Positions 17,784 to 57,167 of a stretch of DNA of 64,000 bases are shown piece after piece. The stretch lies in IMG/VR virus record IMGVR_UViG_3300046167_000801; one strand, written 5' to 3'. The translations under genes and the position numbers were made by a program. The notes below the pieces were generated by a model. It saw only the letters and a program-made list of their open reading frames with translations. It was not told where the DNA came from and did no database searches. Source of the DNA: a virus (Duplodnaviria; Caudoviricetes). Every line of letters starts with the position of its first letter. Position 1 is the first letter of the stretch.

Positions 17784-20700
17784 ATGAATATATTTGATCC
17801 ACACATTACAGGATCCCTATCCGTTTCCGCATCTGCAGAAATACAAGGGGATTTAACAGTACAAGGAACTATCTATGGTACTGCACAGATTGACGGAAGT
17901 GTTGATAATGCAATAAGTGCATCACACGCCGCCTCCTACTTACTCACATCAAGTTTTAATGATTATAAAAATACCGCAGCTACTACTGGAAGTAATATAT
18001 TCATTGGGGATCAAACAATTAGTGGATCGTTGTTACCTCAAGGAACACTTACTCATGATTTGGGTAGCGACACTAAAAGATGGAATGATATATATTTAGC
18101 GGGAAGTACTATCGATTTGGGTGGTACAAAAATAACTAAGAATAGTGATGGTGATGTACAACTTCACGATAGTGGTAATACTTTAAAAAGATTAATTGCA
18201 TCTGAAATTGAGTTAGGTCACGGATCGAACAAGAAAGTTCTTAAAGTAAATAATGGTCGTTTAAAGTTAATGGCCACTAACGACAGTGATGAAGAGTTAG
18301 CCCAATTATCGGGTTCGTTCACTGGTTCTTTTAGAGGAGATGGTAGTGGTTTAATTAATGTTCCCGCAAGTGGGGTTACGGGTCTAAGTTTAGATCGGAT
18401 TGCAAGTACAACAGCAACCGCGTCGATATCCTCAGACAGTTTGATAACTAATGTTTCAATTATACCTAGTATCACAAATACAATTGATTTAGGTGCACCC
18501 GACAAGGAGTGGAGAGATTTATATCTTTCATCAGGGTCATTATATATAAATGGACAACAAGTACTTTCAACTACAGGTACTGAATTAAGAGTCACTACAG
18601 ATAGTGGTGAATCAATAAAAATATTAGAAACGGGTTCTGATACTATCACACTACAAACAGTTGATGGTGATATTACATTAAGTTCTTCAGGAACGGGTAA
18701 TATAGAATTAGATGCACCTATACAAATAACGGCGGGTAATAAAATAATATCTTCAGACGGAAACTCAATTGTTTTTGGTAATGGATTGATTATTACTGGT
18801 AGTATTGGATTAACAGGTACTGTCGATGGGGTTGATGTGGCATCACTAAAAACAGATGTAGACGCTATTTTAGATTCTTCTGAAGCCGATAAAGATTCGT
18901 TTGCTGAAATCGTAGGATTAATCAATAGCGTTGATACTGCGAATGACCAAGCATTTGCGGCACATTATACCGCAAGTAATAATAGACTTAGTTCATTAGA
19001 AACAACTAGTGGTTCACATGATGGGAGATTAAGTTCATTAGAAACAACGAGTGGTTCACACTCATCTAAATTAAACTCTTTAGAATTAGCGTCAGGTTCT
19101 ATAATTGAAAGGTTAGGGGAGATAGAGTTTATTACGGGATCACATGACGGTAGGTTAGATGGATTAGAAACATTTACGGGTAGTGTGGATGGTACTATAA
19201 GGTCTGACTTTAATAGTTATACCTCATCCAACGACTCAACTAATACAAATCAAAATAGTAGATTAGGTAGTTTAGAAACCAAAAGTGGTTCTTTAAATAC
19301 CGATATTAAATCAAAACTAAATACGGAAAATGTTGTTTCAGGTTCTGAGTTTGTTTTAAATTCAACCTCACCAATAACACAATATGTTGATGTTACCGTA
19401 ACTGCAAGTGGTGGTGTATATTATATAGATGGTGTAGAACAACAAATTGTCTCATTAGCGAAAGGACTAGTTTATAGGTTTGATGTGTCAGACTCTTCAA
19501 ATGCAGGACATCCATTTAGATTCTCAACGACAGATAACAATCAATACACAGATGGTGTAACTGTAAATGGTACTGAAGGTAGATCAGGGGCATACGTTCA
19601 AATTATTGTAAATCAAGACACACCACAAACACTATTATACTATTGTACCAATCATAATGGTATGGGTAATAAAGTTTTCGTCGGTGGAGCTGGTGACACA
19701 GACTCAATTACAGAAGGATCAACTAACCTTTACTATACGGATGCTAGAGTTAAATCCAAATTAAATACGGAAACTGTTATTAGTGGTTCTGAACAAGTTG
19801 ATATAACAAATACTACAAATTATAATTTAGTTACCAATAGAATTGGTTCTTTAGAATCATTCACTGCGAGTATTGATGATACATATGCGAGTGATACTGA
19901 TGTAACAACTCTTAGGAATGATTTAAATACCTATACATCATCTAATGATTCTACGAATACAAATCAAAATAGTAGATTAGGTAGTTTAGAAACCAAAAGT
20001 GGTTCACACGATGGTAGATTAGATAGTATAGAATCATTCACAAGTAGTATTGATGATACTTACGCAACTGATACTGATGTAACAACTCTTAGGAATGATT
20101 TAAATACCTATACATCATCCAACGATTCAACCAATACATCACAAAATAATAGATTAGGTTCATTAGAAACCAAAACAGGTAGTTTAGATAGCGATATAAC
20201 TGATCTAAGGGGTGATTTAAATACCTACACGTCTTCAAACGAAACAGATAAACAAAACTTAAGTGGTAGGGTAGATTCTTTAGAGACTAAAACTGGGAGT
20301 TTAACAACCGATATAAATACTTTAGATGGTAGGGTTGATTCCATAGAGTCATTTACCGCAAGTATTGATGATACTTATGCTACTGACACAGATGTAACTA
20401 ACCTAACCAACAGAGTTGGTAGTTTAGAAACCAAAAGTGGTTCATTAGAAACTACGAATACTACTCAGAATAATAGATTAGGGTCACTTGAAACAACTTC
20501 AGGTTCTCATGACGGAAGGTTAGATTCATTAGAAACCAAGACAGGTAGTTTAGATACCACCAATACCAATCAAGACGGTAGATTAGATTCAATAGAATCA
20601 TTCACTGCGAGTATTGATGATACATATGCGAGTGATACAGATGTTACTACATTAAGAAATGATTTAAATACTTATACCTCATCTAACAACACAACCAACC

Positions 20701-23700
20701 AAAACCAAGATATTAGATTAACTAGTTTAGAAACTGAAAGTGGTAGTGTTAGAAGTGATTTTAATACCTACACATCATCTAACGATTCGACCAATACATC
20801 ACAAAATAATAGATTAAGTTCTTTAGAAACTAAGACTGGTAGTTTAGATGGTAATATTACAGGTTTAGATGGTAGGTTAGATACAATAGAAGGTGGTTTA
20901 GAATTTACAGGTTCTAACGTAACTATCAAAGGTGATCTTTTAGTTAAGGGAACAGAAACAAGAGTGGATTCAACAACTGTTGAGATCGGTGATAATATCA
21001 TATCTTTAAATGGTAGTGGGGCACAAAATGCGGGTATAGAGGTTAGAGACAACACTTCTCCTGATTTATTATCGGGTTCATTATTATGGGACGGACAAAA
21101 CAACTATTGGAAGGGTGGTCAAAAAGGATCTGAAGAAAGATTATTAGATAATACCGATTTAACCACTTTAGATAGTAGATTAGATGGTATCGAGGCAGAA
21201 ACAGGAAGTTATCTTACAGACTACAACAATGAATACACAACAGGTGCTACATTTAATAGTGGTAACGGTGTAATTACATTTAAAAGAAATGATGGTGACA
21301 CATTTACTGTTGATATAGACGGTAGATTTTTAGACACAAGGGCACAAGTACATAGTGAATTATATAGTACAAATGGTGACGCTAATGATTATACAGAATT
21401 TGGTATATATAGAAATTACGCGTCTAACGGACCTATCAGTGGTCACAACACAATATTACATGTATCTCAAACAGACGGTAATTATGGTTTCCAATTAGGG
21501 GGATCAACAATAGTTAATGGTGACGGATTATACTTTAGAAATTTTGCGGGTACTGACTCAATAACGGGATCAACGTGGTATCACATCGCAACAAGAGATT
21601 GGGTTGATGATCAAAATTTCCTAACAGACTATAATGATGAATATACGACAGGTGCCACTTTTAATACTAGTGACGGTGTAATTACATTCAAAAGAAATGA
21701 TGGGGATACGTTTACCGTAGACATTGACGGAAGATTCCTAACAAGTTATTCTGAGACAGACACCTTAGATAGTGTAACTACAAGAGGGAATATTACAACA
21801 AACGACATAACTGTTGGTAATATAACTGCAGGACCCACTCTCGAATTGGGGGGTAATTTTAGTATACAAGGTACTGACGGAACTTACTACCAAAGAATAA
21901 AAACTATTGACACTTCATCAACAAGTGCGAATACTTTTAGTTTTGATGTTAAATTAGGAGCGAGTGCGAATTGGAAATCATTATTAATACTTAACCAAAA
22001 CGATACCGCTACTTTTTCAGGAGAAGTTATTGCTACTTCATTCACTAAAAGTGGGGGTACATCATCACAATTCTTAAAGGCGGATGGTAGTGTAGATTCA
22101 AATACATATTTAACACAGCACCCACCAATTGCATCACCAGCGTCTTCTAACAATAGTGGAAGAACATATATCCAAGATATACTATTAGACGGTAATGGAC
22201 ACGTAACAGGACTAACTACGGCCACTGAAACTGTCGTCAATACAGACACAAATGATATTGACTATGTGAGTTCCGCAACATTCAATACGGGTACAGGTGT
22301 AATAACAGGTACTGGTGTGGGTAATGCCGGATTTACTGTTGATATTGATGGTAGGTACGTTGAGTTAGGTGGAGGTACGATGACGGGTGGTTTAATTACA
22401 ACAAATTTACAAGTTCATGGAGGTTCCTCACAAATAGTTTTAAAAGACACAACGGACGATGACGACCATTCTATATTATTTAGAAATAACGCCGACGGTG
22501 ACGATTACAAGATAACAACCAAAGACTTTACGTCAGCCGCTACGGGAGACGGATTCTACCTTGGTTCAACGGGGGGTGACAACGTTGCATTAGTAACAAA
22601 CAACACAACCGCATTAAATATCGACACTTCTCAGAATTCGGTCTTTTCAGGGAACGTTACTGCATCTTCATTTATTAAAAGTGGGGGTACTTCATCTCAA
22701 TTCTTGAAAGCGGACGGTAGTGTTGATAGTAATACCTATTTAACACAACACCCGAATATATCTGCAGCATCTTCATCTAATAATAGTGGTCGAACTTACA
22801 TACAAGACATATTACTTGATAGTAATGGTCATGTTACAGGTTTAACAACTGCAAGTGAGACTGTAACTAATACAGACGAATTTACAACAGGTGCAACATT
22901 CAATACAGGTAACGGTATTATCACATTCACAAGAAATGACGGAGATACTTATACTGTAGATATTGATGGTAGGTATTTAACGTCATTCACAGAAACCGAT
23001 CCAATATTTACGGCTCATGCCGCTTACAATATCACATCGACTCAAATAACTAATTGGGATACCGCATATGGATGGGGTGACCATGCAGATGAAAATTACC
23101 TAACACAACACCCTAATGTAAATGCGGCAAGTAGTTCTAACAACAGTGGTAGAACATATATACAAGATATTTTATTAGATGGTAATGGTCATGTTACAGG
23201 TATAACCACATCATCAGAAACTGTGGTCAATACCGATGAATATACGACAGGTTCTACTTTTAATAGTGGTACGGGTATCATTACATTCACAAGAAATGAT
23301 GGTGACACTTATACTGTTGATATATCTGCAACATTATCGGAAGTTACTGTAACGGGTGGTACATATGATGGTTCAAGTCAAACATTAACATTGACAAAAT
23401 CAGATGGCGACACGGTAGATGTTACGGGTTTTGCGTTGGATACTGACGTAAACTACTATCTAACAGGTGCAACATTCAATACAGGTACAGGTGTAATCAC
23501 TTATAAAGTTAAGGGTGCATCCGATGTTACTGTTGATATTGATGGAAGATACTTACCACTTAGTGGGGGTACTATTTCAAGTAATAACACATATACTTTA
23601 AAGTTAGAAAACTCAAGTAATGGGTTAGGTACGGGAATTGAATTTAGTGATAACCCAGGGGCTGGTACACAAAGAGCATATATAACACATTACCATGGTG

Positions 23701-26700
23701 ACGGTTCTAGTTATGGTTCTGGTGCGTCTATAGTGTTATCAACAAATCAACCCACAATGACAATACTTGCCGATGGTAAGTTAATGTACAAAGAAGGTAT
23801 ATACTCCAAACCGGCGACAGGTACAGGTGCGGGTACAAGAAAAGATCAAAATTGGGATACCGCTTATGGGTGGGGAGACCACAGTACTGTTGGATATCTA
23901 ACTGGTTTTACTGAAACCTATACCGAACATGAGAATATAAGTGCGGCTTCCTCCTCTAATAATAGTGGAAGGACATACATTCAAGATATATTAGTTGATA
24001 GTAATGGTCATATAACTGGTATCACTACCGCAACAGAAACTGTTACTAATACAGACACAATCGATTATATTAATTCAGCGACATTCAATACAGGTACAGG
24101 TGTAATAACAGGTACTGGTGTGGGTAACGCAGGATTCACTGTAGATATTGATGGTAGATTTGTAAAATTAGGTGGAGACACCATGACAGGTACTCTTGAC
24201 GTACACGTTCCTGATGCAGGTACAATATTAAGTTCAGGTAATTCATCTGCAACAGGTACACCTGACCAATTCTTCATTAAACACGTTAATGGTGGTGTTG
24301 CAATTGGGAACCTTAGAGGTGATATAAACTTCACAAGCGGTAACTTAAAGAATGACGGTAATCTCATATGGGATGCCGGTGATTTCACATCAACCAACAT
24401 AAGTAATTGGGACACCGCATATGGATGGGGTGATCACAGCACTGTAGGATACCTAACAGGATATACCGATACAAATGATATCGATTATGTTAATTCAGCA
24501 ACATTTAATACAGGTACAGGTGTCGTAACATTATCGGGTGTTGGAAATGCGGGTGCAACTGTTGACCTTGATGGTAGATACCTATTAGATACAACAGACA
24601 CATTTACGGGAGCACTTACAATTGCCGGTGATATAAGAGGTAATGGTCAACAACTAATATTAAACGCAGGTGAGTCCTACGCATATGCAACAGGACAGAC
24701 AAACGAATATGTTTATATCAATGCAGAACAAGGTCTTGAGGTTAATTCAGAAACAGGTAATTGGACAGTAAACGGATGGTCAGATAGAAAAACAGCATTA
24801 CTTAGAGGGGATTTACTTAGGTTAGATGGGGAAGACCTCACCAAAACTAATATCCAAAACTTCAAAACCGCATATGGATGGGGTGACCATTCCACTGAAG
24901 GGTACGTGAAAAATGACGAGTATACAACAGGTGCCACATTTAATAGTGGTAATGGTATAATCACATTTACAAGAAATGATGGTGACACATATACGGTTGA
25001 TGTAGACAATAGATATCTACAATTGTCGGGAGGATCGTTATCGGGTAATCTTAATATGACAGGTACTAACCCAATGATAAAGTTTGTTCCGACAGGAACT
25101 AATGATGGTGCGGGTATTAGATTTAACTACACCAATAATGATGGTGAAATGGAGTTTTGGACTTCTGATGATTATAGTGAACCATTTGTTTGGAGAGCAT
25201 ACGATGTAGGTTTAGATGGGACTGGAAACTATCAAGAGTGGATGAAACTCTACCAAAAGAAACTTTATATTGACGGTGAGGAATTAAGTAAAACAAACAT
25301 ACAGAACTTTAAAACCGCATATGCATGGGGTGACCATTCAATAGCGGGATACTCGGAAGTTGATTATTACACTACAGGTGCCACTTTTAATAATGGTTCA
25401 GGTACCCTTGAATTCACAAGAAATGATGGAAACACTTACAGTGTAAGTTTATCATCGGCCCTAGTAGACGTTACTGTAACGAGTGGTACATATAACAGTA
25501 GTAATCAGATACTAACCTTAACCAAATCAAACGGAAGTACCGTAGATATTTCAGGGTTTGCGGTTGATACAGATGTTAACTGGTATACGACAAGTGCATC
25601 ATTCAATACGAGTAACGGTATTATAACAGGGACACACCATGGAGGTACATGGACTGTCGATATTGATGGTAGGTATGGTTTAAAATCACTTTCAGAAAAT
25701 AAAACATATACAAGTGGTGGTAATGCTGTTGGTTCCTATTTAGGTGGACACTACTCAGGTGGTGGTACAGAAAAACCAAATTCAGCAACGTTTGGATCAG
25801 GAAAACTGAAGATAGCGATGCTATCAAACACTAACCTTGGATTCGGGGGATCTTGGAATGATGTACTTTGGATTAGTGCATATAATGGTAGTGATGTAAA
25901 AGGGTCACACGCATTGGTGTTCGACAAGTACAGTACAAATGTTTACGTCTCTGACCAATCATACGACTCGGCGTCATGGGGTACTGGATACCAATTATGG
26001 CACACCGGACACTTCCAACAAAGCAGTATTAATAATTGGAATACCGCATATGGATGGGGAGACCACTCAGCGGCAGGATATGCATCAGGTGACTTCCTAT
26101 TAAAATCTGGTGGAACTATGAGTGGTGCCATTAACATGAACGGTAGTGGTATTGATATGGTTAATGGTTCGATAAGTAATGTTAACCATATTACAATTGC
26201 AGACCCAGGACCAACAGAAGGTATTGAATGGTTAGGTGGTAATGGGTTTAGAATTGTTGAATCACCAAACGACTTAACAACAAACAGTGGTGGTAATTTA
26301 CAATTCGTTAAATCAAGTACAAGAATATTAACTTTAGGATCAAATGGTCAGTCAGAATTTACTGATAAGTTAACTCTAACATCTTCTACTTCAGGATCAA
26401 CAATATTTGATATCCAAGGTACAAGTGGCCAGTTATTCTCAATCACTGATGATTTGACGGGTGATCTATTCGCGGTTTCAGATTCATCAGGTGTACCAAT
26501 CCTAAATGTTAATGCGAATGGTGCGGTAACACTCGACCCACTTGGTTCTTTATATGTTGGAAATAATAAAGTAATTAATGGTAGTGGTAATATTGAGTTT
26601 GATGGACCTGTAACCACATCCAACCAAGGTAGAGGTATCTATTGGACAGGTTATGATAAAGAAGGTACCACAGATTTCTCAGATACCGCACATATATTAC

Positions 26701-28115
26701 ACACAAGTAATAGTGGTGGATTGGCAGGTTCTGTCATTGAGATTAAATCACATAACGATGCAACTGATGGTGTTAACTTTGTGGTTAATGGTAACAGTGC
26801 GGTTAGAATCAATGGTAACATTGTGGTTCACGCAGGTAACTATACTTCATACCAACAACACCCAACGATTACCGCGGCTAATTCTTCAGATAACTCGGGT
26901 AGAACATATATACAAGACATCTTATTAGATGGTAACGGACACGTTACGGGTGTTACAACAGCAACAGAGACAGTTACCGATAGTGGAAATGATAATGATA
27001 TAGATTACATAAGTGGAGCTACGTTTGATGATACTACAGGTGTAATTACAGGCACAGGAACAGGTAATGCTGGATTTACTGTCGATATTGATGGTAGGTA
27101 TTTAACTACTGAAACTTATACAGCACACGATAATATTACTGCGGCCACATCTTCTAACAATAGTGGTAGAACGTATGTTCAAGACATTTTAGTAGATGGT
27201 AACGGACACGTTACGGGTATAACTACGGCTACAGAAACAGTCACCGATAGTGGAAATGATAATTACTATGTTGATGGATTAAGTTTCGATACTGGTAATG
27301 GTGTTCTTACGGCGAGTGTGAATGGGGCAACTAATCAGACAGTCGATTTAGACGGTAGGTATTTAGGAACAGGAGACAAGGCGGCAGATTCTGATTTACT
27401 TGATGGTTTAGACCTTCATACGGGACGTAACAATGAGGCAAATAAAGTAGTACGTACAGATGCAAACGGTTATATCCAAGCTGGTTGGATTAATACAACA
27501 TCGGGAGCGAACGGTGCTTCAGATACCATAAGTAGAATTTACGCGTCGGGAGATGGTTATATTAGATATTATAGTAAGGCCGACTTCATTAGTCAATTAG
27601 GTTTAATTACTACAGGTAATATTGGTTCACAATCTGTAAATTATGCAACAACGGCAGGATCGGCGGATATGATTGATGGTGTTGCATTTAGAAACACAAA
27701 TTCAACTGGAGGGATTGATGCGGACTCCTTAAATAGTGCGGGTATCACATACTACACAGGTGGTGTGACAAACTTCTCAGGTAACGCAACTGACGGAGCT
27801 CTTTACTCACAAATATATAGTTCATCATGGCAACATCAAATTGCGGGTGACTATAGAAGTGGACGAATTGCGGTTAGAGGTAAAAATAATAATACTTGGC
27901 AATCTTGGAAAAAGATACCGGCGGTTAATGTTTCTACATTCAGTAATGTGGGTACCGTTACTTTTACCCATGGTTTAGGAACCGACAACGTGATTGTACA
28001 GGTATATGATAGTAATGGTGATTTATTTTTCCCTTCGGCAATAAATTCTTTAAATGGGGTGGTTGTGGTTAAATTTGAAACAAATAGATCAGGAAGAGTA
28101 GTCGTAACAGGATAA
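17784..28115 (+). CDS. Giant modular tail fibre / virion structural protein, 3443 aa
   Basis: Gly/Ser/Thr/Asn-rich, with coiled-coil repeats, a cupredoxin-like insert and shuffled beta-repeats. Fibre-type distal segments (ADSDLLDGLD...VVRTDANGYI, QHQIAGDY...IAVRGKNNNTWQSW) and a C-terminal THGLGTDNVIVQVYD domain. Confidence 0.85.
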   Translation: MNIFDPHITGSLSVSASAEIQGDLTVQGTIYGTAQIDGSVDNAISASHAASYLLTSSFNDYKNTAATTGSNIFIGDQTISGSLLPQGTLTHDLGSDTKRWNDIYLAGSTIDLGGTKITKNSDGDVQLHDSGNTLKRLIASEIELGHGSNKKVLKVNNGRLKLMATNDSDEELAQLSGSFTGSFRGDGSGLINVPASGVTGLSLDRIASTTATASISSDSLITNVSIIPSITNTIDLGAPDKEWRDLYLSSGSLYINGQQVLSTTGTELRVTTDSGESIKILETGSDTITLQTVDGDITLSSSGTGNIELDAPIQITAGNKIISSDGNSIVFGNGLIITGSIGLTGTVDGVDVASLKTDVDAILDSSEADKDSFAEIVGLINSVDTANDQAFAAHYTASNNRLSSLETTSGSHDGRLSSLETTSGSHSSKLNSLELASGSIIERLGEIEFITGSHDGRLDGLETFTGSVDGTIRSDFNSYTSSNDSTNTNQNSRLGSLETKSGSLNTDIKSKLNTENVVSGSEFVLNSTSPITQYVDVTVTASGGVYYIDGVEQQIVSLAKGLVYRFDVSDSSNAGHPFRFSTTDNNQYTDGVTVNGTEGRSGAYVQIIVNQDTPQTLLYYCTNHNGMGNKVFVGGAGDTDSITEGSTNLYYTDARVKSKLNTETVISGSEQVDITNTTNYNLVTNRIGSLESFTASIDDTYASDTDVTTLRNDLNTYTSSNDSTNTNQNSRLGSLETKSGSHDGRLDSIESFTSSIDDTYATDTDVTTLRNDLNTYTSSNDSTNTSQNNRLGSLETKTGSLDSDITDLRGDLNTYTSSNETDKQNLSGRVDSLETKTGSLTTDINTLDGRVDSIESFTASIDDTYATDTDVTNLTNRVGSLETKSGSLETTNTTQNNRLGSLETTSGSHDGRLDSLETKTGSLDTTNTNQDGRLDSIESFTASIDDTYASDTDVTTLRNDLNTYTSSNNTTNQNQDIRLTSLETESGSVRSDFNTYTSSNDSTNTSQNNRLSSLETKTGSLDGNITGLDGRLDTIEGGLEFTGSNVTIKGDLLVKGTETRVDSTTVEIGDNIISLNGSGAQNAGIEVRDNTSPDLLSGSLLWDGQNNYWKGGQKGSEERLLDNTDLTTLDSRLDGIEAETGSYLTDYNNEYTTGATFNSGNGVITFKRNDGDTFTVDIDGRFLDTRAQVHSELYSTNGDANDYTEFGIYRNYASNGPISGHNTILHVSQTDGNYGFQLGGSTIVNGDGLYFRNFAGTDSITGSTWYHIATRDWVDDQNFLTDYNDEYTTGATFNTSDGVITFKRNDGDTFTVDIDGRFLTSYSETDTLDSVTTRGNITTNDITVGNITAGPTLELGGNFSIQGTDGTYYQRIKTIDTSSTSANTFSFDVKLGASANWKSLLILNQNDTATFSGEVIATSFTKSGGTSSQFLKADGSVDSNTYLTQHPPIASPASSNNSGRTYIQDILLDGNGHVTGLTTATETVVNTDTNDIDYVSSATFNTGTGVITGTGVGNAGFTVDIDGRYVELGGGTMTGGLITTNLQVHGGSSQIVLKDTTDDDDHSILFRNNADGDDYKITTKDFTSAATGDGFYLGSTGGDNVALVTNNTTALNIDTSQNSVFSGNVTASSFIKSGGTSSQFLKADGSVDSNTYLTQHPNISAASSSNNSGRTYIQDILLDSNGHVTGLTTASETVTNTDEFTTGATFNTGNGIITFTRNDGDTYTVDIDGRYLTSFTETDPIFTAHAAYNITSTQITNWDTAYGWGDHADENYLTQHPNVNAASSSNNSGRTYIQDILLDGNGHVTGITTSSETVVNTDEYTTGSTFNSGTGIITFTRNDGDTYTVDISATLSEVTVTGGTYDGSSQTLTLTKSDGDTVDVTGFALDTDVNYYLTGATFNTGTGVITYKVKGASDVTVDIDGRYLPLSGGTISSNNTYTLKLENSSNGLGTGIEFSDNPGAGTQRAYITHYHGDGSSYGSGASIVLSTNQPTMTILADGKLMYKEGIYSKPATGTGAGTRKDQNWDTAYGWGDHSTVGYLTGFTETYTEHENISAASSSNNSGRTYIQDILVDSNGHITGITTATETVTNTDTIDYINSATFNTGTGVITGTGVGNAGFTVDIDGRFVKLGGDTMTGTLDVHVPDAGTILSSGNSSATGTPDQFFIKHVNGGVAIGNLRGDINFTSGNLKNDGNLIWDAGDFTSTNISNWDTAYGWGDHSTVGYLTGYTDTNDIDYVNSATFNTGTGVVTLSGVGNAGATVDLDGRYLLDTTDTFTGALTIAGDIRGNGQQLILNAGESYAYATGQTNEYVYINAEQGLEVNSETGNWTVNGWSDRKTALLRGDLLRLDGEDLTKTNIQNFKTAYGWGDHSTEGYVKNDEYTTGATFNSGNGIITFTRNDGDTYTVDVDNRYLQLSGGSLSGNLNMTGTNPMIKFVPTGTNDGAGIRFNYTNNDGEMEFWTSDDYSEPFVWRAYDVGLDGTGNYQEWMKLYQKKLYIDGEELSKTNIQNFKTAYAWGDHSIAGYSEVDYYTTGATFNNGSGTLEFTRNDGNTYSVSLSSALVDVTVTSGTYNSSNQILTLTKSNGSTVDISGFAVDTDVNWYTTSASFNTSNGIITGTHHGGTWTVDIDGRYGLKSLSENKTYTSGGNAVGSYLGGHYSGGGTEKPNSATFGSGKLKIAMLSNTNLGFGGSWNDVLWISAYNGSDVKGSHALVFDKYSTNVYVSDQSYDSASWGTGYQLWHTGHFQQSSINNWNTAYGWGDHSAAGYASGDFLLKSGGTMSGAINMNGSGIDMVNGSISNVNHITIADPGPTEGIEWLGGNGFRIVESPNDLTTNSGGNLQFVKSSTRILTLGSNGQSEFTDKLTLTSSTSGSTIFDIQGTSGQLFSITDDLTGDLFAVSDSSGVPILNVNANGAVTLDPLGSLYVGNNKVINGSGNIEFDGPVTTSNQGRGIYWTGYDKEGTTDFSDTAHILHTSNSGGLAGSVIEIKSHNDATDGVNFVVNGNSAVRINGNIVVHAGNYTSYQQHPTITAANSSDNSGRTYIQDILLDGNGHVTGVTTATETVTDSGNDNDIDYISGATFDDTTGVITGTGTGNAGFTVDIDGRYLTTETYTAHDNITAATSSNNSGRTYVQDILVDGNGHVTGITTATETVTDSGNDNYYVDGLSFDTGNGVLTASVNGATNQTVDLDGRYLGTGDKAADSDLLDGLDLHTGRNNEANKVVRTDANGYIQAGWINTTSGANGASDTISRIYASGDGYIRYYSKADFISQLGLITTGNIGSQSVNYATTAGSADMIDGVAFRNTNSTGGIDADSLNSAGITYYTGGVTNFSGNATDGALYSQIYSSSWQHQIAGDYRSGRIAVRGKNNNTWQSWKKIPAVNVSTFSNVGTVTFTHGLGTDNVIVQVYDSNGDLFFPSAINSLNGVVVVKFETNRSGRVVVTG
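18970..20900 (+). repeat. Coiled-coil repeat region (RLxSLETxSGS / SIDDTYAxDTDVTTLRNDLNTYTSSN units)
   Basis: Many peptide repeats. Exact DNA repeats include 50 nt at 19242-19291 = 19956-20005 and 51 nt at 19892-19942 = 20069-20119. Confidence 0.9.
21230..27370 (+). repeat. Interleaved fibre modules: SNNSGRTYIQDILLDGNGHVTG (6x), TTGATFNxGxGxITFxRNDGDTxTVDIDGR and variants (about 13x), NWDTAYGWGDH (6x)
   Basis: Counted directly in the translation. Confidence 0.9.
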
Positions 28116-51620: not shown

Positions 51621-53198
51621 ATGGAAGAATTAAGTAAAAAAGATATTTTGACTCTTATTGGTGAGAATCTAACCACTATAAGACGACCTGGGTATAAAGG
51701 TTTTGACGAATCTAAGGAGTTAGACGAAATGCCGTTAAGGCCAGACCAACTCCCAAAGAAAGAAATTGAACCAGGTAAACCCACAAAAAAATCTAAAAAA
51801 ATTGTTTTAACTTTAGATAATGGTGAGGAGATGACATTTAGTACATCACAATCAGTTATAAAAGTTGATGGAGAAAATAAGAACACTGTTAAGGTAACAC
51901 AAATACAACCTGGTGATGTTATTGTTGACGACAACAGAAGTGAACAAACCGTCTCTAGTGTGGATCAAAAGGAAGTAATTGCACCTTGGACAGCAATGTT
52001 CGAAACAGACAATGACGGTAAACCGATTGAACATGTTGGTTGGTATAGATATGAAAACGGAGAGGTCACCCCAATTATTTTTACTTGTGAATGGGACGAA
52101 CTGACAGAAAAACACCCTGATTTAGTACCTAAACTAAAAGAGAAATTTGGTAAGGTTAAGTTAAAAGAGGAGAACTGTCCATCATATAAACCAAGAGGTA
52201 GAGATATAGGGGGTGTAAAACCTATCCCTGGCGATGATGGGGAAGAGGTCACTTTTGATAATGCGGATCAAGTACCTGATGCAACAGGGACTAAAACTAC
52301 ATATACTAGGGAGAAGATAAATAGAACATTTAATTCTATCTTAAAAGATGAGTTAGTGGATGATGAAGATTTCGTAACTACATTAAAAAGAATAAGTTTA
52401 CCTGAAATAGTTATCCTTAACCCAAAACACAGAAATAAATACAGTGAAGTAAACGATAAAGAGATTACATTTCAGTCACATAACATAAATTTATATAAAA
52501 CACAGGAAGAGTTCCAAAATACCACAAGGAAAACGGTTATGAGGGGTAGAACACCTGAGTATTTTGAAAGTGATGAGTACAATCCAAAAAAATCCAATAG
52601 TTTAAGAAGACAATACAATTCAGGATATTCTAATTGGTCCAAAACACGTTTTACTCAACAAGGTGCTGGATACGGTAAAACACCTGTATTCAAATTAGAT
52701 AGAGGTGATTTCCCAAATGAAGAAGATTTTTCAGTAATGGTATCATCTGATTTAGAAATAAAAGGTATTGCTCAGGGTGAAGGTGAGATGACATCTGGAT
52801 ATAGATGGGAATTAGTCTATACCGTTGAATACGCAAAGAAATTACCTACTGATAGAGTAGCAAGAAAAATATTCAAGGATGAGGATGTATCAATAAATCT
52901 TTTTGTTGATGTTGATTTAAGTGAAGAAAAGGATTTTGATGGTAAAGTAGATAAAGAACAAGACGGTAAAATTGTTGGTGGGGACACAGGAGATAATCAC
53001 CCATTAACAGATGTTAACATTGTCCAAGGACTAAAAGAAATTTTAGATAACTTCAAGAAAGAAATGAGTGGTAAGAAACAATTCCAATTGGCAGCTAAAA
53101 GGGCTCAAATGACAAGACAGGATGTGGATACTGCAGATATGAGGTTAAATGAAGAAGAAATAAAAGACATCATAAAGAAAACAATAAACAAGAAGTAA
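51621..53198 (+). CDS. Large hypothetical protein with a degenerate Hint-like segment
   Basis: IVLTLDNGEEMTFS...VTQIQPGDVIV...TVSSV; C-terminal RLNEEEIKDIIKKTIN motif; preceded by AAGTATTTAT. Confidence 0.5.
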   Translation: MEELSKKDILTLIGENLTTIRRPGYKGFDESKELDEMPLRPDQLPKKEIEPGKPTKKSKKIVLTLDNGEEMTFSTSQSVIKVDGENKNTVKVTQIQPGDVIVDDNRSEQTVSSVDQKEVIAPWTAMFETDNDGKPIEHVGWYRYENGEVTPIIFTCEWDELTEKHPDLVPKLKEKFGKVKLKEENCPSYKPRGRDIGGVKPIPGDDGEEVTFDNADQVPDATGTKTTYTREKINRTFNSILKDELVDDEDFVTTLKRISLPEIVILNPKHRNKYSEVNDKEITFQSHNINLYKTQEEFQNTTRKTVMRGRTPEYFESDEYNPKKSNSLRRQYNSGYSNWSKTRFTQQGAGYGKTPVFKLDRGDFPNEEDFSVMVSSDLEIKGIAQGEGEMTSGYRWELVYTVEYAKKLPTDRVARKIFKDEDVSINLFVDVDLSEEKDFDGKVDKEQDGKIVGGDTGDNHPLTDVNIVQGLKEILDNFKKEMSGKKQFQLAAKRAQMTRQDVDTADMRLNEEEIKDIIKKTINKK

Positions 53199-53227
53199 TA
53201 TTGGTTTCGGTTCTATTCAAATCTATT

Positions 53228-53261
53228 AGGGGATACAATTTAAATTGTGTCCCTTTTTTTT
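53228..53261 (+). terminator. Rho-independent terminator
   Basis: GGGATACAATTT/AAATTGTGTCCC stem followed by a T-run. Confidence 0.8.
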
Positions 53262-53265
53262 ATTC

Positions 53266-53294
53266 TTGATATATTAAAAAAATATTCTTATATT
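53266..53294 (+). promoter_or_regulatory. Putative promoter TTG-N20-TATATT
   Basis: Directly after the terminator, upstream of 53313. Confidence 0.6.
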
Positions 53295-53312
53295 AATAAC
53301 AAAACATTAAGT

Positions 53313-53522
53313 ATGGTAAGTTTATTAAGACAAGAATGGTTATCCGATCCAAAACTTAAAAAATGGGATTCTGTGGGATGTACCGTAGAAGAAAATTGTA
53401 CTTGTAAAACGGATAAATATCATGTAGAATTGTGGGAACAAGATTCATGTGTTAGAGGTAGAATAGACACCGTTGTTTGTACTAAATGTGACACCATTAA
53501 ATCATTTAATATTGTAAGATGA
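53313..53522 (+). CDS. Small Cys-rich, probably Zn-binding protein, 69 aa
   Basis: CTC and CTKC pairs. Likely start is 53313, since the 53247 start lies in the terminator. Confidence 0.65.
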   Translation: MVSLLRQEWLSDPKLKKWDSVGCTVEENCTCKTDKYHVELWEQDSCVRGRIDTVVCTKCDTIKSFNIVR

Positions 53523-53638
53523 TTAATAGTTATGTTGATTCCACTTGGAACTGTGGTTGTGGTGCATTAAATGCCGGTTACAGAGAGACGTGCGGTGCGT
53601 GTGGGAAACCTAAACCCACACCTAAAATTATCTATTAA
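53519..53638 (+). CDS. 39-aa RanBP2-type zinc-finger microprotein (not in ORF track)
   Basis: MINSYVDSTWNCGCGALNAGYRETCGACGKPKPTPKIIY matches W-x-C-x(n)-C-x3-N-x6-C-x2-C-x3-K-P; ATGA overlap with the upstream stop. Confidence 0.8.
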   Translation: MINSYVDSTWNCGCGALNAGYRETCGACGKPKPTPKIIY

Positions 53639-53662
53639 AATTTTAAACAGATATTTATTGTT

Positions 53663-53938
53663 ATGAGGATTGATTTTAAAAAGATACTTGAGGCATATAA
53701 AGTAAAAATTAGCCCAACCATAGAACAAAAAGATCTGGCACTAAAAAGATTAGAAATTTGTAAAGGATGTGAATTTCTTAAGGGTAGTGTTGAGGATAAT
53801 TTTTGTAGTTGTGGTGTTTGTGGTTGTTTTATACATGGTAAGATATTTACTAATAAAGGGGATGAGTGTCCAAAAGGTAAATGGAGTGAAATAGACCGAG
53901 GACACTTTAAAACAAAAGTTAAAAACACATTAATATGA
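53663..53938 (+). CDS. Cys-rich small protein (R..IC..C...CG.CGC...K...CP.GKW)
   Basis: Motif visible in the translation; preceded by AGATATTTAT. Confidence 0.75.
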   Translation: MRIDFKKILEAYKVKISPTIEQKDLALKRLEICKGCEFLKGSVEDNFCSCGVCGCFIHGKIFTNKGDECPKGKWSEIDRGHFKTKVKNTLI

Positions 53939-55983
53939 GAGCAGTTTTGGTAGGTAATGATTACCTTAAAGATAATAACGGTAATTTTAAACACTTAGAA
54001 AGTAACACTTCTGTTTTACCTTCATTTGCAAGATCCGAAGACTACTTCAACAAGTCTGTATTTGATCAGTTTCTTTTAGATAATAACATAACAAGTATTG
54101 TCATTATAGACGCTTTAGGTCCTACCTTATTACAAGATGGGTTAGACAAACAACATGACGGTAATTCTTCCCATCAAAAGATTAGTCATATGTTATCTAA
54201 TGTATATGGTGAAACTCACAATGTTAGTTTTATCAGTCAAAATCAAGATGGATCTTTACCATTGATCGAGGATGCGGATGATAAACTAATCTTAAGAATT
54301 GCATATGACGACAATGCTTTAGTTGATGAATCATACTGTAAAGATAATTTTGGGTTTCTAAAATTGATATCTGACAGTAATCCCAACTCATTACCTAATG
54401 TATTTTTTAATGATGGGAATGAGATTAGTGTAGATACCATAGGTACGACGATAACAGACAATGGTAACCACCCTAACTTTATTATTAAGGAAAGGTATCC
54501 TACGACCAACTATAAAAATTACCCTAAAGTATATAGAATTAATAGTGTTGAGGAATTAAACACACTTAAAAACGGATTAAATAGTAATGAATTACTTCAG
54601 GAATATATTTGTAACACTAACGATTTAATTGACGGTAAATTAAAAACGTACAGACATATTACAATACTATACGGAAGTGACCTGTCAGTTTTAAATCCGT
54701 TCGACGTATTCTGTCATTCTAATAGGTTACCAATAACAGATGCTGTGGATTACGATGGTACAACAAATGAACTATCTCCATGGGAGAGACCTAAGTACTT
54801 ACAAAAAACAGGGTCAACGGCAGCTTCGAAACTTTATACTGGATCTGAAAACGATAATGTTAAAAAAAGTGATGGTTCGTTAGTTAAACTAAAAGATCTT
54901 AAAGTAGGTGATAACCTCTCAAGTGTGATATTATCGGGATTAGGACCTGATGACGAATCCCATGTTAATTTTTCTTCGAATATAGATGATTTAAATAGTA
55001 GCAATATAATATATTCACCCGTATTTGATGGCCCATTTGGGGGTATGTCTTATACCAAAGAAGAAGGTTATGATCCAACATATAATAACCCAACTACATC
55101 TAACGAATGGGGTGGTTTTGCAAATACCAATACTGAATTGTCAAATGTTACCTTTCAAGAGGGTGGTAAATTAACATTTAATGCATCCTGTGAAGGGTCA
55201 ATTGATGTTAAATTCATATTTGAGAATAACCCATATAATCATAACGGAAATGGTGATGATGATACGTTACCTAGATATAATACTGATTTAATTACAGTTA
55301 GTGGTGAGGGTGGTAAATATTCTATTGAGATCCCATCTCAAGGTTCAAACACTTTTAGTTCTTTTGTATTAAAAGTTATTACTCAGGATTCAAATATTAA
55401 AATTACCAATTTTAAAATTATTACCTACGTAAGTGGACTCACCGATACTTCAGTTAGTACTGATAGTATTATTTCCGAAGAGTCGGGATTTTTTGAACAC
55501 ATTATAACCTTAAGTGGGGGTAAAACATATAACTTTTTAGGTAGAAGTCAAATCCTATCATCAGGACCAAACGATGAGTTGTATCGATTCATGATTGCGG
55601 ATAATTTATTGGTTGGGTGTAAAGTAATAACAAGAGAATTGAGTGGGGGGAACCTTATTCCCGAAACGATAGTTTCTATGGGTTATAGGTACGTCCATGA
55701 AGTTGCATATAGTATAGATGTCGAAGAGGTAGATTACTATTTCAGAACAGATAGTTCTGAAACCCCTACACAAAGTGTTATTCATCACAATAAAGAACAG
55801 ATTGGGTGTATGTGTTATCATAAAGAATTTGAATGGACCAATTGTAGTTGCAATAGTCCATGTGTTTATGCCATGGGTGAATGTATGGAGGATGGTGCGT
55901 TCATAGATTGTTGTGGTTCACAACCAATGTGTTATGGAGGTTCATATTCATCGGGTCCTTGTGGTGATATAGGTAAAGAATAA
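53935..55983 (+). CDS. Multidomain protein: ATP-grasp-like N-terminus, Hint domain interrupted by a CBM-like domain, 63-aa Cys-rich tail
   Basis: GNDYLKDNNGNFKHLESNT, FIIKER and LLQEYI (ATP-grasp-like); VKKSDGSLVKLKDLKVGDNL ... YSIDVEEVDYYF...IHHN (Hint); 10 Cys after HN. Confidence 0.7.
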   Translation: MRAVLVGNDYLKDNNGNFKHLESNTSVLPSFARSEDYFNKSVFDQFLLDNNITSIVIIDALGPTLLQDGLDKQHDGNSSHQKISHMLSNVYGETHNVSFISQNQDGSLPLIEDADDKLILRIAYDDNALVDESYCKDNFGFLKLISDSNPNSLPNVFFNDGNEISVDTIGTTITDNGNHPNFIIKERYPTTNYKNYPKVYRINSVEELNTLKNGLNSNELLQEYICNTNDLIDGKLKTYRHITILYGSDLSVLNPFDVFCHSNRLPITDAVDYDGTTNELSPWERPKYLQKTGSTAASKLYTGSENDNVKKSDGSLVKLKDLKVGDNLSSVILSGLGPDDESHVNFSSNIDDLNSSNIIYSPVFDGPFGGMSYTKEEGYDPTYNNPTTSNEWGGFANTNTELSNVTFQEGGKLTFNASCEGSIDVKFIFENNPYNHNGNGDDDTLPRYNTDLITVSGEGGKYSIEIPSQGSNTFSSFVLKVITQDSNIKITNFKIITYVSGLTDTSVSTDSIISEESGFFEHIITLSGGKTYNFLGRSQILSSGPNDELYRFMIADNLLVGCKVITRELSGGNLIPETIVSMGYRYVHEVAYSIDVEEVDYYFRTDSSETPTQSVIHHNKEQIGCMCYHKEFEWTNCSCNSPCVYAMGECMEDGAFIDCCGSQPMCYGGSYSSGPCGDIGKE

Positions 55984-56001
55984 ATTAAAAACTAAGTTAT
56001 T

Positions 56002-56145
56002 ATGTCAGAAGTAAATAAAAATACCCTTTATAACGATAAAAATCAAATTAGGCCAATTATTGATAAATCCTCTACGGAAGATAAAACAAGTATTGAGAAC
56101 CTAACTAATAGTTTTGTTCAACTAATAAAGGACAAACACCTTTAG
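56002..56145 (+). CDS. 47-aa microprotein MSEVNKNTLYNDKNQIRPIIDKSSTEDKTSIENLTNSFVQLIKDKHL (not in ORF track)
   Basis: Manual translation; fills the gap after the Hint gene. Confidence 0.6.
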   Translation: MSEVNKNTLYNDKNQIRPIIDKSSTEDKTSIENLTNSFVQLIKDKHL

Positions 56146-56148
56146 TAT

Positions 56149-56177
56149 TTGATTTATTAAAATATTATTCGTATATT
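56149..56177 (+). promoter_or_regulatory. Putative promoter TTG-N20-TATATT
   Basis: 6 nt before the ATG at 56184. Confidence 0.6.
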
Positions 56178-56183
56178 ATTTAT

Positions 56184-56435
56184 ATGAGTAATATTGAAAA
56201 AATACATGACCAATTCCCCGAACTTGAAGTTCTTCAGGCAGATGGGTTCGATGATGCAATTGTTGGTTTAGAACCACTAAGTGGTAAATTAATCTATGAC
56301 ATCTCTAAAATGATAGACGTACTTTTGGAAGAAGGTTTATCTCATGAAGATGCAATAGAGTACCTAGATTTTAATGTACTTAACGCATATGTGGGTGAAA
56401 ATACACCACTCTACATACACACCATAGAGGAATAA
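56184..56435 (+). CDS. Conserved phage hypothetical protein
   Basis: LQADGFDDAIVG...YD..KMI...EDAIEYLDFNVLNAYVGENTP, a pattern common in phage proteins. Confidence 0.7.
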   Translation: MSNIEKIHDQFPELEVLQADGFDDAIVGLEPLSGKLIYDISKMIDVLLEEGLSHEDAIEYLDFNVLNAYVGENTPLYIHTIEE

Positions 56436-56635
56436 TGGTATTCATAAGTCAAACATACAAGAAGGCAATTAAAGTTATTGATAGTTGTGAAAATGAAGAA
56501 CAACTAAAGGGGGCATCAAATTATGTGACCCTATTTAAGAATTACTTTGAAAAATTGGGATCTGACGACCAACTAATAGAAATTTATTATTCAGAACTTA
56601 AAAATAAAATACTAACTAGATTAGATGAAAATTAA
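56435..56635 (+). CDS. Hypothetical protein, 66 aa
   Basis: Overlaps both neighbours at start and stop. Confidence 0.65.
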   Translation: MVFISQTYKKAIKVIDSCENEEQLKGASNYVTLFKNYFEKLGSDDQLIEIYYSELKNKILTRLDEN

Positions 56636-57167
56636 AAGTACTGACATAAAAGACTGTTACATAATAGAGTCTGATAAATATGTAGATAATAGGGGACACT
56701 TCCAAGTACCCTTTAATGTCGGTGAATTTAACCAAAAGACGGGAATCACGTTTAAGTTCATCCAAGAGAACGAGTCATTTTCGGAAAAAAATGTTATTAG
56801 AGGATTACATTTTCAAAAACCCCCATTCGAACAATCTAAGTTGGTTAGGTGTATTTATGGTGGTGTAACTGATGTTATATTAGACATTAGAAAAGACTCC
56901 CCAACGTATGGGAGGGTGGTAAAGGTAGAGTTAAAAGGGGGTGATTTACAATCTGTTTTTGTACCTAAAGGTTGTGCACATGGGTTCTCCACACAATCAA
57001 GAGCGGTTTTTAATTATAAAGTTGACAATGTCTATTCTAAAGATAGTGAGGGTGGTGTGATATATAATGACCCCGAGTTAAATATAGATTGGAATGTGGG
57101 TAAAAAACCTAAAATATCTGACAAGGATTTATTACTACCCTTTTTCAAAGATTTAGATATTTATTAG
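56625..57167 (+). CDS. rmlC: dTDP-4-dehydrorhamnose 3,5-epimerase
   Basis: DNRGHF, FIQENESFS, VIRGLHFQ, QSKLVRC, DIRKDSPTYG, GCAHGF, YKVDN.YS and ISDKD. Confidence 0.95.
   Translation: MKIKSTDIKDCYIIESDKYVDNRGHFQVPFNVGEFNQKTGITFKFIQENESFSEKNVIRGLHFQKPPFEQSKLVRCIYGGVTDVILDIRKDSPTYGRVVKVELKGGDLQSVFVPKGCAHGFSTQSRAVFNYKVDNVYSKDSEGGVIYNDPELNIDWNVGKKPKISDKDLLLPFFKDLDIY

Follow-up and report, generated by a model that had tools for sequence, protein, structure and literature searches.

We identified a phage gene whose product joins a putative ligase, a predicted autoprotease and a variable cysteine-rich peptide in a single polypeptide. The gene lies on IMGVR_UViG_3300046167_000801, a virus of the Caudoviricetes, of which a stretch of 64,000 nucleotides (the window) was analysed. 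It occupies an open reading frame (ORF) of 682 amino acids at 53935–55983 on the plus strand, which is open throughout and ends in a TAA stop codon at 55981–55983. From the N- to the C-terminus, the encoded protein, P0001, consists of an ATP-grasp domain, a Hint (Hedgehog/intein) domain with a beta-sandwich insert, and a Cys-rich tail. This domain architecture can be regarded as practically certain. The best overall explanation, which we consider fairly probable, is that P0001 is a self-processing ligase-Hint-peptide protein.

A chance ORF at this position was ruled out by the 33 close homologues that were retrieved in a word-indexed search and the 577 representative homologues that were retrieved in an exhaustive HMMER search (E ≤ 1e-3; part of these representatives match the insert only), as well as by identical metagenome DNA, contigs from RNA libraries and confident structural models. 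Identical DNA of 2.5 kb was found in seawater, marine and viral metagenomes from at least 12 studies. In addition, metatranscriptomic contigs from three studies/libraries span most of the gene, including one identical 911-nt contig that corresponds to 55045–55955, with the caveat that such RNA-library contigs could stem from DNA carry-over. The AlphaFold models had a mean confidence (pLDDT) of 86 for the whole protein and of 92 for residues 1–298 alone.

The permuted ATP-grasp domain and the Hint domain

Structural models support the assignment of residues 1–295 (53935–54819, plus strand) to the ATP-grasp fold, in its circularly permuted form, as seen in the glutathione-synthetase / glutathionylspermidine-synthetase class. 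Fold searches with the model of this domain, by Foldseek and by exhaustive VIA comparison, returned ATP-grasp enzymes almost exclusively, and the top ~40 PDB matches all belonged to this group. Foldseek matched permuted ATP-grasps with an E-value of 3e-6 and a probability of 1.0, and VIA gave Z-scores of up to 8.9 over 207–226 residues. Matches to the permuted class spanned residue 1 to ~290 in the VIA alignments (YgiC, Z 8.9; GSS22, 8.7; GspS, 8.6; Trypanosoma brucei glutathione synthetase (GS), 8.4); eukaryotic glutathione synthetases, GspS, YgiC/YjfC and trypanothione synthetase, with Z-scores of 8.9–7.0, were all aligned from residue 1, and the alignment was collinear with GS residues 121–452. 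In contrast, the alignment with classical ATP-grasps (ArgX/LysX, RimK, Ddl, TTLL, PurK and a graspetide ligase) began only at residue ~52. This split is as expected if the first ~50 residues, which include the E22-x-N24 hairpin, have been transferred to the N-terminus from a C-terminal position, as has happened in the permuted enzymes already known. Furthermore, the matching AFDB clusters bear the names ‘circularly permuted ATP-grasp’ and glutathionylspermidine synthase.

The domain opens with the motif G7.D9Y..G16..L21E22.N24T25, which is followed by FIIKER at residues 182–187 and LLQEY at residues 220–224. In an alignment of 91 sequences, the invariant residues are D9, E22, N24, T25, P109, R121, D125, D131, P197 and R240; K185 is kept in 90 of the 91. 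From motif likeness, which includes a weak alignment with the biotin carboxylase hairpin (E = 2), and from general background, we take D9, E22 and N24 to be the putative Mg site, K185 to be the putative ATP lysine and Q222-E223-Y224 to be a hinge-like motif. The domain thus looks like an active carboxylate-amine ligase, catalysis being read here from conservation. It is a new sequence family inside a known fold class. With the permuted ATP-grasps (eukaryotic glutathione synthetase, GspS/YgiC/YjfC and CP_ATPgrasp) it shares the fold and the position of the Mg-binding hairpin before the ATP-binding part, but it has no detectable sequence similarity to them, is 295 residues long rather than 370–600, and is fused to a Hint domain.

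The Hint fold was recognised by VIA and hhalign in residues 302–619 (54838–55791, plus strand). The structural alignment starts at residues 299–302 (54829–54840) and ends at H618-N619 (55786–55791), and the N-terminal part carries the motif V309..DGS..LKDLKVGD. The best structural match was Hedgehog (1at0; Z 17.2, rmsd 2.2 Å, 143/145 residues). The RecA intein matched with a Z-score of 16.7, its residues 1–440 being placed on residues 302–619 such that intein residue 1 falls on T302 and the terminal Asn on N619, and more than 40 inteins and bacterial intein-like (BIL) domains matched at Z 12–17, among them BIL2 (6y75) at Z 16.6. When a Hint profile without the insert was compared with the C-terminal Hint domains of relatives, which Pfam scores as PT-HINT or Intein_splicing, hhalign gave a probability of 97.3 % and an E-value of 1.9e-11, with HN aligned on HN. 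The Hint domain of P0001 went undetected in a single-sequence Pfam search.

The residues reported to assist Asn cyclisation are an Asp or His at position 13 of intein block F (F:13), the penultimate His and the terminal Asn, while position 1, block B and the +1 residue serve other splicing steps (PMC4031507). In P0001, the first set is represented by D600 (55732–55734, plus strand) and by H618-N619 (55786–55791, plus strand), and both conservation and the intein alignment place the predicted scissile bond between N619 and K620. The Asn is present in all 91 relatives, the His in 86, and Asp or His at F:13 in 82 (69 Asp, 13 His). The second set has drifted: position 1 is Thr302 here and most often H (27), T (17), K (15), S (9) or I (8) among the 91 relatives, the TxxH site of block B reads GRSQ (residues 536–539) and is unconserved, and the +1 residue is K620 here and elsewhere K, A, P, Y, G and others. 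The first Cys follows the HN at +2 to +8 in the family. In the absence of Cys1, the block B TxxH and a +1 nucleophile, the domain would be unable to perform the upstream splicing steps, and a true intein is ruled out. The retention of the Asn-cyclisation residues amid a drifted remainder makes a C-terminal cut the most likely function. The most economical reading is a dedicated C-terminal asparagine lyase that lacks the N-terminal, thioester-forming half.

Known relatives of the fold show in which respects this Hint domain would be unusual. BIL domains without a +1 nucleophile do cleave, and cuts at the ends of a BIL may replace splicing or accompany it (PMC4031507). The Hint domain of P0001 shares the missing +1 nucleophile, but unlike BILs it has neither Cys1 nor the block B His, which would leave the C-terminal cut as the only possible one. 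Hedgehog/Hog proteins likewise fuse an autoprocessing Hint domain to a signalling or cargo domain; however, the Hedgehog cut falls before the Hint domain, proceeds through a Cys thioester and involves a cargo that lies upstream, whereas here the predicted cut is C-terminal, through Asn, and the cargo lies downstream.

These results bear on a first-pass annotation of the window, which had read ATP-grasp-like motifs in permuted order at the N-terminus and, further on, a Hint domain equipped for C-terminal cleavage only. Each motif was found where it had been placed in the translated ORF. The permuted order agrees both with the different starting points of the permuted and classical alignments and with the AFDB names, and the Hint fold was recovered with N619, H618 and F:13 kept and the rest variable. 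The Lys at +1 (K620), the lack of Cys1 (Thr302) and the replacement of TxxH by GRSQ (536–539) were likewise seen.

The beta-sandwich insert and the cysteine-rich tail

A beta-sandwich that resembles a carbohydrate-binding module (CBM) is inserted in the Hint fold at residues ~354–500 (54994–55434, plus strand). The modelled insert matched CBM29 by VIA (Z 11, rmsd 2.8, 123 amino acids) and CBM22 by Foldseek, which points to a CBM-like fold. A search of the BFVD fold database gave partial matches only, with the beta-sandwich matching tail proteins. The insert is missing from most relatives and is mosaic among the close ones. When the window was compared with six close loci, the identity of the insert jumped independently between 68 % and 99 %. 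The insert is homologous to tandem repeats of secreted fasciclin-domain proteins. As a side observation, large bacterial proteins that are secreted and contain fasciclin (PF02469) domains carry this type of beta-sandwich as 3–5 tandem repeats (P0029, P0034 and many HMMER matches), and the repeat is covered by no Pfam model.

The Hint domain is followed by a hypervariable tail of 63 amino acids (K620–E682; 55792–55980, plus strand) that ends in GKE, has a mass of 6842.7 Da when reduced, and contains 10 Cys residues at positions 625, 627, 637, 639, 643, 650, 659, 660, 666 and 676. Every full-length relative likewise carries a Cys-rich stretch of ~21–140 amino acids after the HN, P0134 and P0163 being the only exceptions. 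Between the window and the six close loci, identity is 95–97 % in the ligase and 96–99 % in the C-terminal half of the Hint domain, compared with 62–78 % in the tail. Both nonsynonymous (dN) and synonymous (dS) divergence are raised in the tail, with a ratio (omega) of 0.5–1.0. Together with the independent switching of the insert, this pattern indicates that cassettes have been exchanged and that point mutation was not the only process. The contrast between a conserved enzyme core (95–99 %) and a hypervariable segment after the HN is the one that the first-pass annotation had predicted.

Of 133 tails, 131 have an even number of Cys residues, and the same holds for 31 of the 32 clusters of tails (binomial p 1.5e-8). 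Tails with 6 Cys (40 tails), 10 Cys (37) and 8 Cys (29) prevail, and 12 and 16 Cys also occur; the members with short tails have 6 Cys in 23–35 amino acids. In their overall composition, the tails contain 0.5 % His, with Gly, Tyr, Ser, Pro and Asn being abundant. A Lys is found among the last three residues in 80 of the 108 members that end with the tail and immediately before the serine of a following Peptidase_S74 (S74) module in 14 of 15, while it makes up 2.8 % of the tail residues elsewhere. The even Cys count and the rarity of His favour fully paired disulfides over zinc sites. All-Cys4 zinc sites were regarded as unlikely, given the predominance of 6 and 10 Cys and the scarcity of His. 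Of the ‘disulfide- or metal-rich’ peptide that had been proposed in the first pass, the disulfide part thus gains support and the metal part is disfavoured. A search for stand-alone proteins resembling the tail found none, and when the tail was used for a feature search of the protein atlas, the scores stayed below 0.8, which is uninformative.

Predicted processing and competing explanations

We propose that the C-terminal half of the Hint domain would cut the N619/K620 bond by Asn cyclisation. An N619-dependent cleavage that detaches the tail appears probable. It would release the 63 residues as a peptide that probably has five disulfides and ends in a conserved segment containing Lys. The peptide would represent a fast-evolving, exchangeable cargo aimed outside the phage genome, at the host, a competitor or the environment. 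In our judgement, the view that the tail forms a mini-protein with disulfide bonds, and that its place of action is outside the cell or on the virion, is slightly favoured over the contrary. The ligase would then modify the freed peptide or couple it to something, possibly aided by two small companion proteins; an action of the ligase on the tail is a tentative element of this proposal.

A precedent for an ATP-grasp enzyme tied to a ribosomal peptide is found in the graspetides of the microviridin type, and the conserved Lys of the tail could be the amine, as in omega-amide formation. However, the graspetide enzyme and its precursor are encoded by separate genes, the leader is cut by a protease rather than a fused Hint domain, and the ATP-grasp domain is non-permuted (7mgv aligns only from residue 52, with Z 4.7). 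The label ‘RiPP-like’ (for ribosomally synthesised and post-translationally modified peptides), which had been applied to the gene in the first pass, is an analogy and not a membership.

The separate elements of the proposed system have known precedents in the release of toxin domains that was inferred for the PT-HINT domains of bacterial polymorphic toxins (PMC3482391), in the processing by BIL and BUBL elements (PMC4031507, PMC8616854) and in the permuted ATP-grasp ligases. Literature searches on phage proteins combining ATP-grasp with Hint, on DUF6171 and on BIL domains in connection with cysteine-rich sequences returned no account of a ligase-Hint fusion, of a Hint domain reduced to its Asn-lyase half before hypervariable even-Cys peptides, or of such a phage family. 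If the cut occurs, the gene would represent a widespread phage route to small disulfide-rich peptides, with a sequence turnover as fast as that of receptor-binding proteins. Phages would then gain a class of products so far tied to animals, plants and fungi, such as toxins, defensins and knottins, and the protein would provide a natural instance of a Hint domain pared down to a pure C-terminal asparagine lyase. To our knowledge, it would also be the first natural case of an ATP-grasp ligase, an autoprotease and a peptide in one gene.

Several observations weigh against this proposal. The cut after N619 is a prediction from sequence and models. In many inteins, Asn cyclisation proceeds slowly when the upstream steps have not taken place (PMC4031507), and these steps are missing in the Hint domain of P0001. 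The fusion is the sole link between the ligase and the tail, and P0134 and P0163 have no Cys-rich segment, yet they have the ligase. As P0001 lacks a signal peptide, the Cys-rich peptide would be synthesised in the reducing cytoplasm, where disulfides are not readily formed. Six Cys residues could also form a Zn2Cys6 site. Concerning the ligase itself, the N-terminal domain had no match in Pfam, NCBIfam, PHROG or PDB sequences at E ≤ 0.1–1, including GSH_synth_ATP, GSP_synth and CP_ATPgrasp_1/2; profile A3 gave just one, non-significant match in the PDB, to a biotin carboxylase hairpin (E = 2), and the ATP-grasp Z-scores of 8–9 barely exceed the background of 7–8 that is stated for VIA. Finally, S74 modules and CBM-like inserts are typical of virion fibres.

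The latter point leads to an alternative in which P0001 is a virion-associated adhesin or fibre. The protein, or its processed C-terminal part, would sit on the particle, the insert and the disulfide-stabilised tail would touch the host surface, and S74 would act as the usual trimerising chaperone of fibre tips. Indeed, the S74 intramolecular-chaperone module follows the Cys-rich part in at least 15 of 133 members, the fold of the insert is CBM29/CBM22-like with BFVD matches to tail proteins, disulfides are suited to extracellular life, and insert and tail are swapped independently among near-identical phages, giving a mosaic like that of receptor-binding proteins. The fully conserved ATP-grasp catalytic set would, however, be unexpected in a structural protein, and the invariant Asn at the junction implies that the tail detaches from the rest. 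Moreover, most relatives have neither the insert nor S74, and the gene is located among auxiliary metabolic genes rather than beside recognisable structural genes. On balance, we consider an adhesin unlikely.

Alternatively, cleavage might not occur at all. The Hint domain would then be a degenerate scaffold, and the tail would stay attached to a cytoplasmic ligase as its metal-binding or regulatory domain, the target of the ligase being a metabolite or a protein of either host or phage. Such a role would be in line with the loss of Cys1, the block B TxxH and the +1 nucleophile, with the missing signal peptide and the fact that cytoplasmic Cys clusters usually bind metals, and with the presence of IscA and radical-SAM genes nearby. 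A scaffold, on the other hand, would not need an invariant N619 and nearly invariant H618 and F:13 residues where the other catalytic positions have drifted. Likewise, the near absence of His and the prevalence of 6 and 10 Cys misfit Cys4 sites, and a domain integral to the enzyme would not be 62 % identical beside an enzyme of 97 %. These considerations render the possibility distinctly improbable.

A more far-reaching variant of processing concerns the relatives with a second Hint domain. In seven members (P0110, P0156, P0173, P0105, P0106, P0134 and P0163), a bona fide, canonical Hint domain with Cys1, TxxH and HN is followed by just 2–13 residues, usually KK. This second Hint could be a BIL- or intein-like insertion or a processing device. 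As an aside, its splicing-out would restore the Lys-containing C-terminus of the relatives that have no second Hint. Both the S74 and the double-Hint members retain all ATP-grasp invariants. Since S74 and the second Hint remove themselves, the Cys-rich segment would be freed, or re-joined to the terminal Lys, at its C-side too. The relatives in which a peptide is enclosed by two Hint domains resemble the BUBL elements of Tetrahymena (BIL-UBL-BIL), where a small BIL-flanked domain is released and conjugated (PMC8616854). They differ in that BUBL conjugation is ATP-independent, whereas the ligase-Hint family always includes an ATP-grasp domain. The topology Hint1(HN)-peptide-(Cys1)Hint2 is also that of SICLOPPS, an engineered cyclisation system, and these relatives could serve peptide engineering.

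It is in this context that the family might be viewed as a one-polypeptide machine for peptide maturation, in which the Hint cut unmasks an alpha-amine and the fused ATP-grasp domain activates a carboxylate and closes an amide; where a Hint domain follows the peptide, the thioester of that second Hint could close the amide instead. The products would be head-to-tail cyclised or Lys-cross-linked disulfide-rich mini-proteins, forming a hypervariable extracellular arsenal in phage–host or phage–phage conflict. The short tails, with 23–35 amino acids and 6 Cys, have the size and the Cys count of cyclotides and knottins. Nevertheless, we regard this elaborate scheme as rather unlikely.

Family distribution, companion genes and genomic setting

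Two small genes accompany the ligase-Hint gene. The first (53663–53938, plus strand) overlaps the start of the ligase-Hint ORF by ATGA and encodes a 91-amino acid DUF6171-like protein (Pfam PF19668, E 1.2e-4, below the cut-off) with six invariant Cys residues in the motifs CxxC, CxxCGC and CP..KW; in the viral family, C33, C36, C50, C53, G54, C55, C69 and W74 are invariant. It is located within four genes on either side of the ligase-Hint gene in 73 of 80 loci. Prediction of a complex between this protein and P0001 resulted in a score of 0.24 against a mark of 0.32, a score that gives no verdict either way. The second gene (56002–56145, plus strand) starts 19 nt past the ligase-Hint stop codon, appears to be translationally coupled to the ligase-Hint gene, and encodes a hydrophilic protein of 47 amino acids with the conserved C-terminal motif (I/V)KxKH(L/S). 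An ORF of 45–50 codons is present directly downstream in ~45 of 79 loci; the encoded proteins fall into three BLAST clusters, and the motif is common to all of them.

Between the window and the close locus L001, the 47-amino acid protein is 98 % identical (one residue differs) and the DUF6171-like protein 97 %, compared with 63 % for the tails. An immunity-gene role for either small neighbour was ruled out, as neither co-varies with the tail. This comparison bears on a special case of the self-processing explanation, in which the protein would be a weapon akin to polymorphic toxins. Upon lysis, the Hint domain would free a variable peptide with an antimicrobial or signalling function, and the ligase would have a separate role, for example in protecting the producer or activating the peptide. 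As in the PT-HINT proteins, a Hint autopeptidase stands directly upstream of a variable, recombining C-terminal cassette (PMC3482391), and some relatives carry domains that are scored as PT-HINT by Pfam. The differences are that the present family belongs to phages, lacks both a region for secretion or a stalk and an immunity gene that co-varies, and carries as cargo a 20–140-amino acid Cys-rich peptide instead of an enzyme toxin, with an ATP-grasp ligase as the N-terminal partner. Even though the cassette-like exchange of the tail and the small ORF immediately downstream would suit such a weapon, we deem it the least probable of the alternatives, because a secretion or trafficking domain is lacking, the ATP-grasp fold already begins with its first strand at the N-terminus and no signal-like segment is present, the small neighbours do not vary with the tail as a cognate immunity gene would, and stand-alone tail cassettes were not found in the search.

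Other frequent neighbours in related loci encode 2OG-Fe(II) oxygenases, sulfotransferase-like proteins, SGNH hydrolases and APS kinase. These genes are common in such islands, and their association with the ligase-Hint gene may be coincidental. In the short-tail subfamily (L035–L080; for example L049:6438–6872, L050:7381–7761 and L041:11765–12496), the ligase-Hint gene is often near genes for APS kinase, small nucleotidyltransferase-like proteins, sulfotransferase-like proteins and several 2OG-Fe(II) oxygenases. It is conceivable that the peptides are sulfated or hydroxylated.

With hundreds of lineages in marine and freshwater viromes, the ligase-Hint family has so far been unannotated. Searches of Pfam, PHROGs, NCBIfam and PDB sequences with P0001 and its three segments yielded nothing usable, leaving the family without a name. 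In IMG/VR, 297 loci were confirmed on viral contigs of up to 310 kb. No matches were obtained in 50,697 records of cultured phages, either by blastn with positions 53000–57000 or by tblastn with P0001, P0031 and P0133. A search of 185,579 prokaryote species genomes with alignment A1 gave only three contigs of metagenome-assembled genomes (MAGs), which are probably mis-binned phage DNA, and the family is in practice restricted to phages. The MAG contigs, namely the 248-kb contig L081 (‘Flavobacteriaceae’), L082 (‘Pelagibacterales’) and L083 (‘Diapherotrites’), are at best weak hints to hosts.

The window has a G+C content of 31–39 % and almost every gene lies on one strand. It also encodes thymidylate synthase, IscA, RmlC, a carbamoyltransferase, radical-SAM enzymes, glycosyltransferases and an ORF of 3443 amino acids. 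One gene near the ligase-Hint gene has relatives, at 28–31 % identity, in T4-like cyanophages only, and on this basis the window comes from an uncultured T4-like marine phage. The sole match of the 3443-amino acid ORF (17784–28115) was the DUF7310 coiled-coil. It is followed by three ORFs of ~370 amino acids, which by their size could be paralogues, and one of these is related to proteins of T4-like cyanophages (phrog_1417). Lastly, a strong, terminator-like hairpin with a 12-bp stem and a T run (53228–53255, plus strand) precedes the putative transcription unit. It is situated between a 525-amino acid ORF and a series of small ORFs, rich in Cys, that extends up to the ligase-Hint gene.

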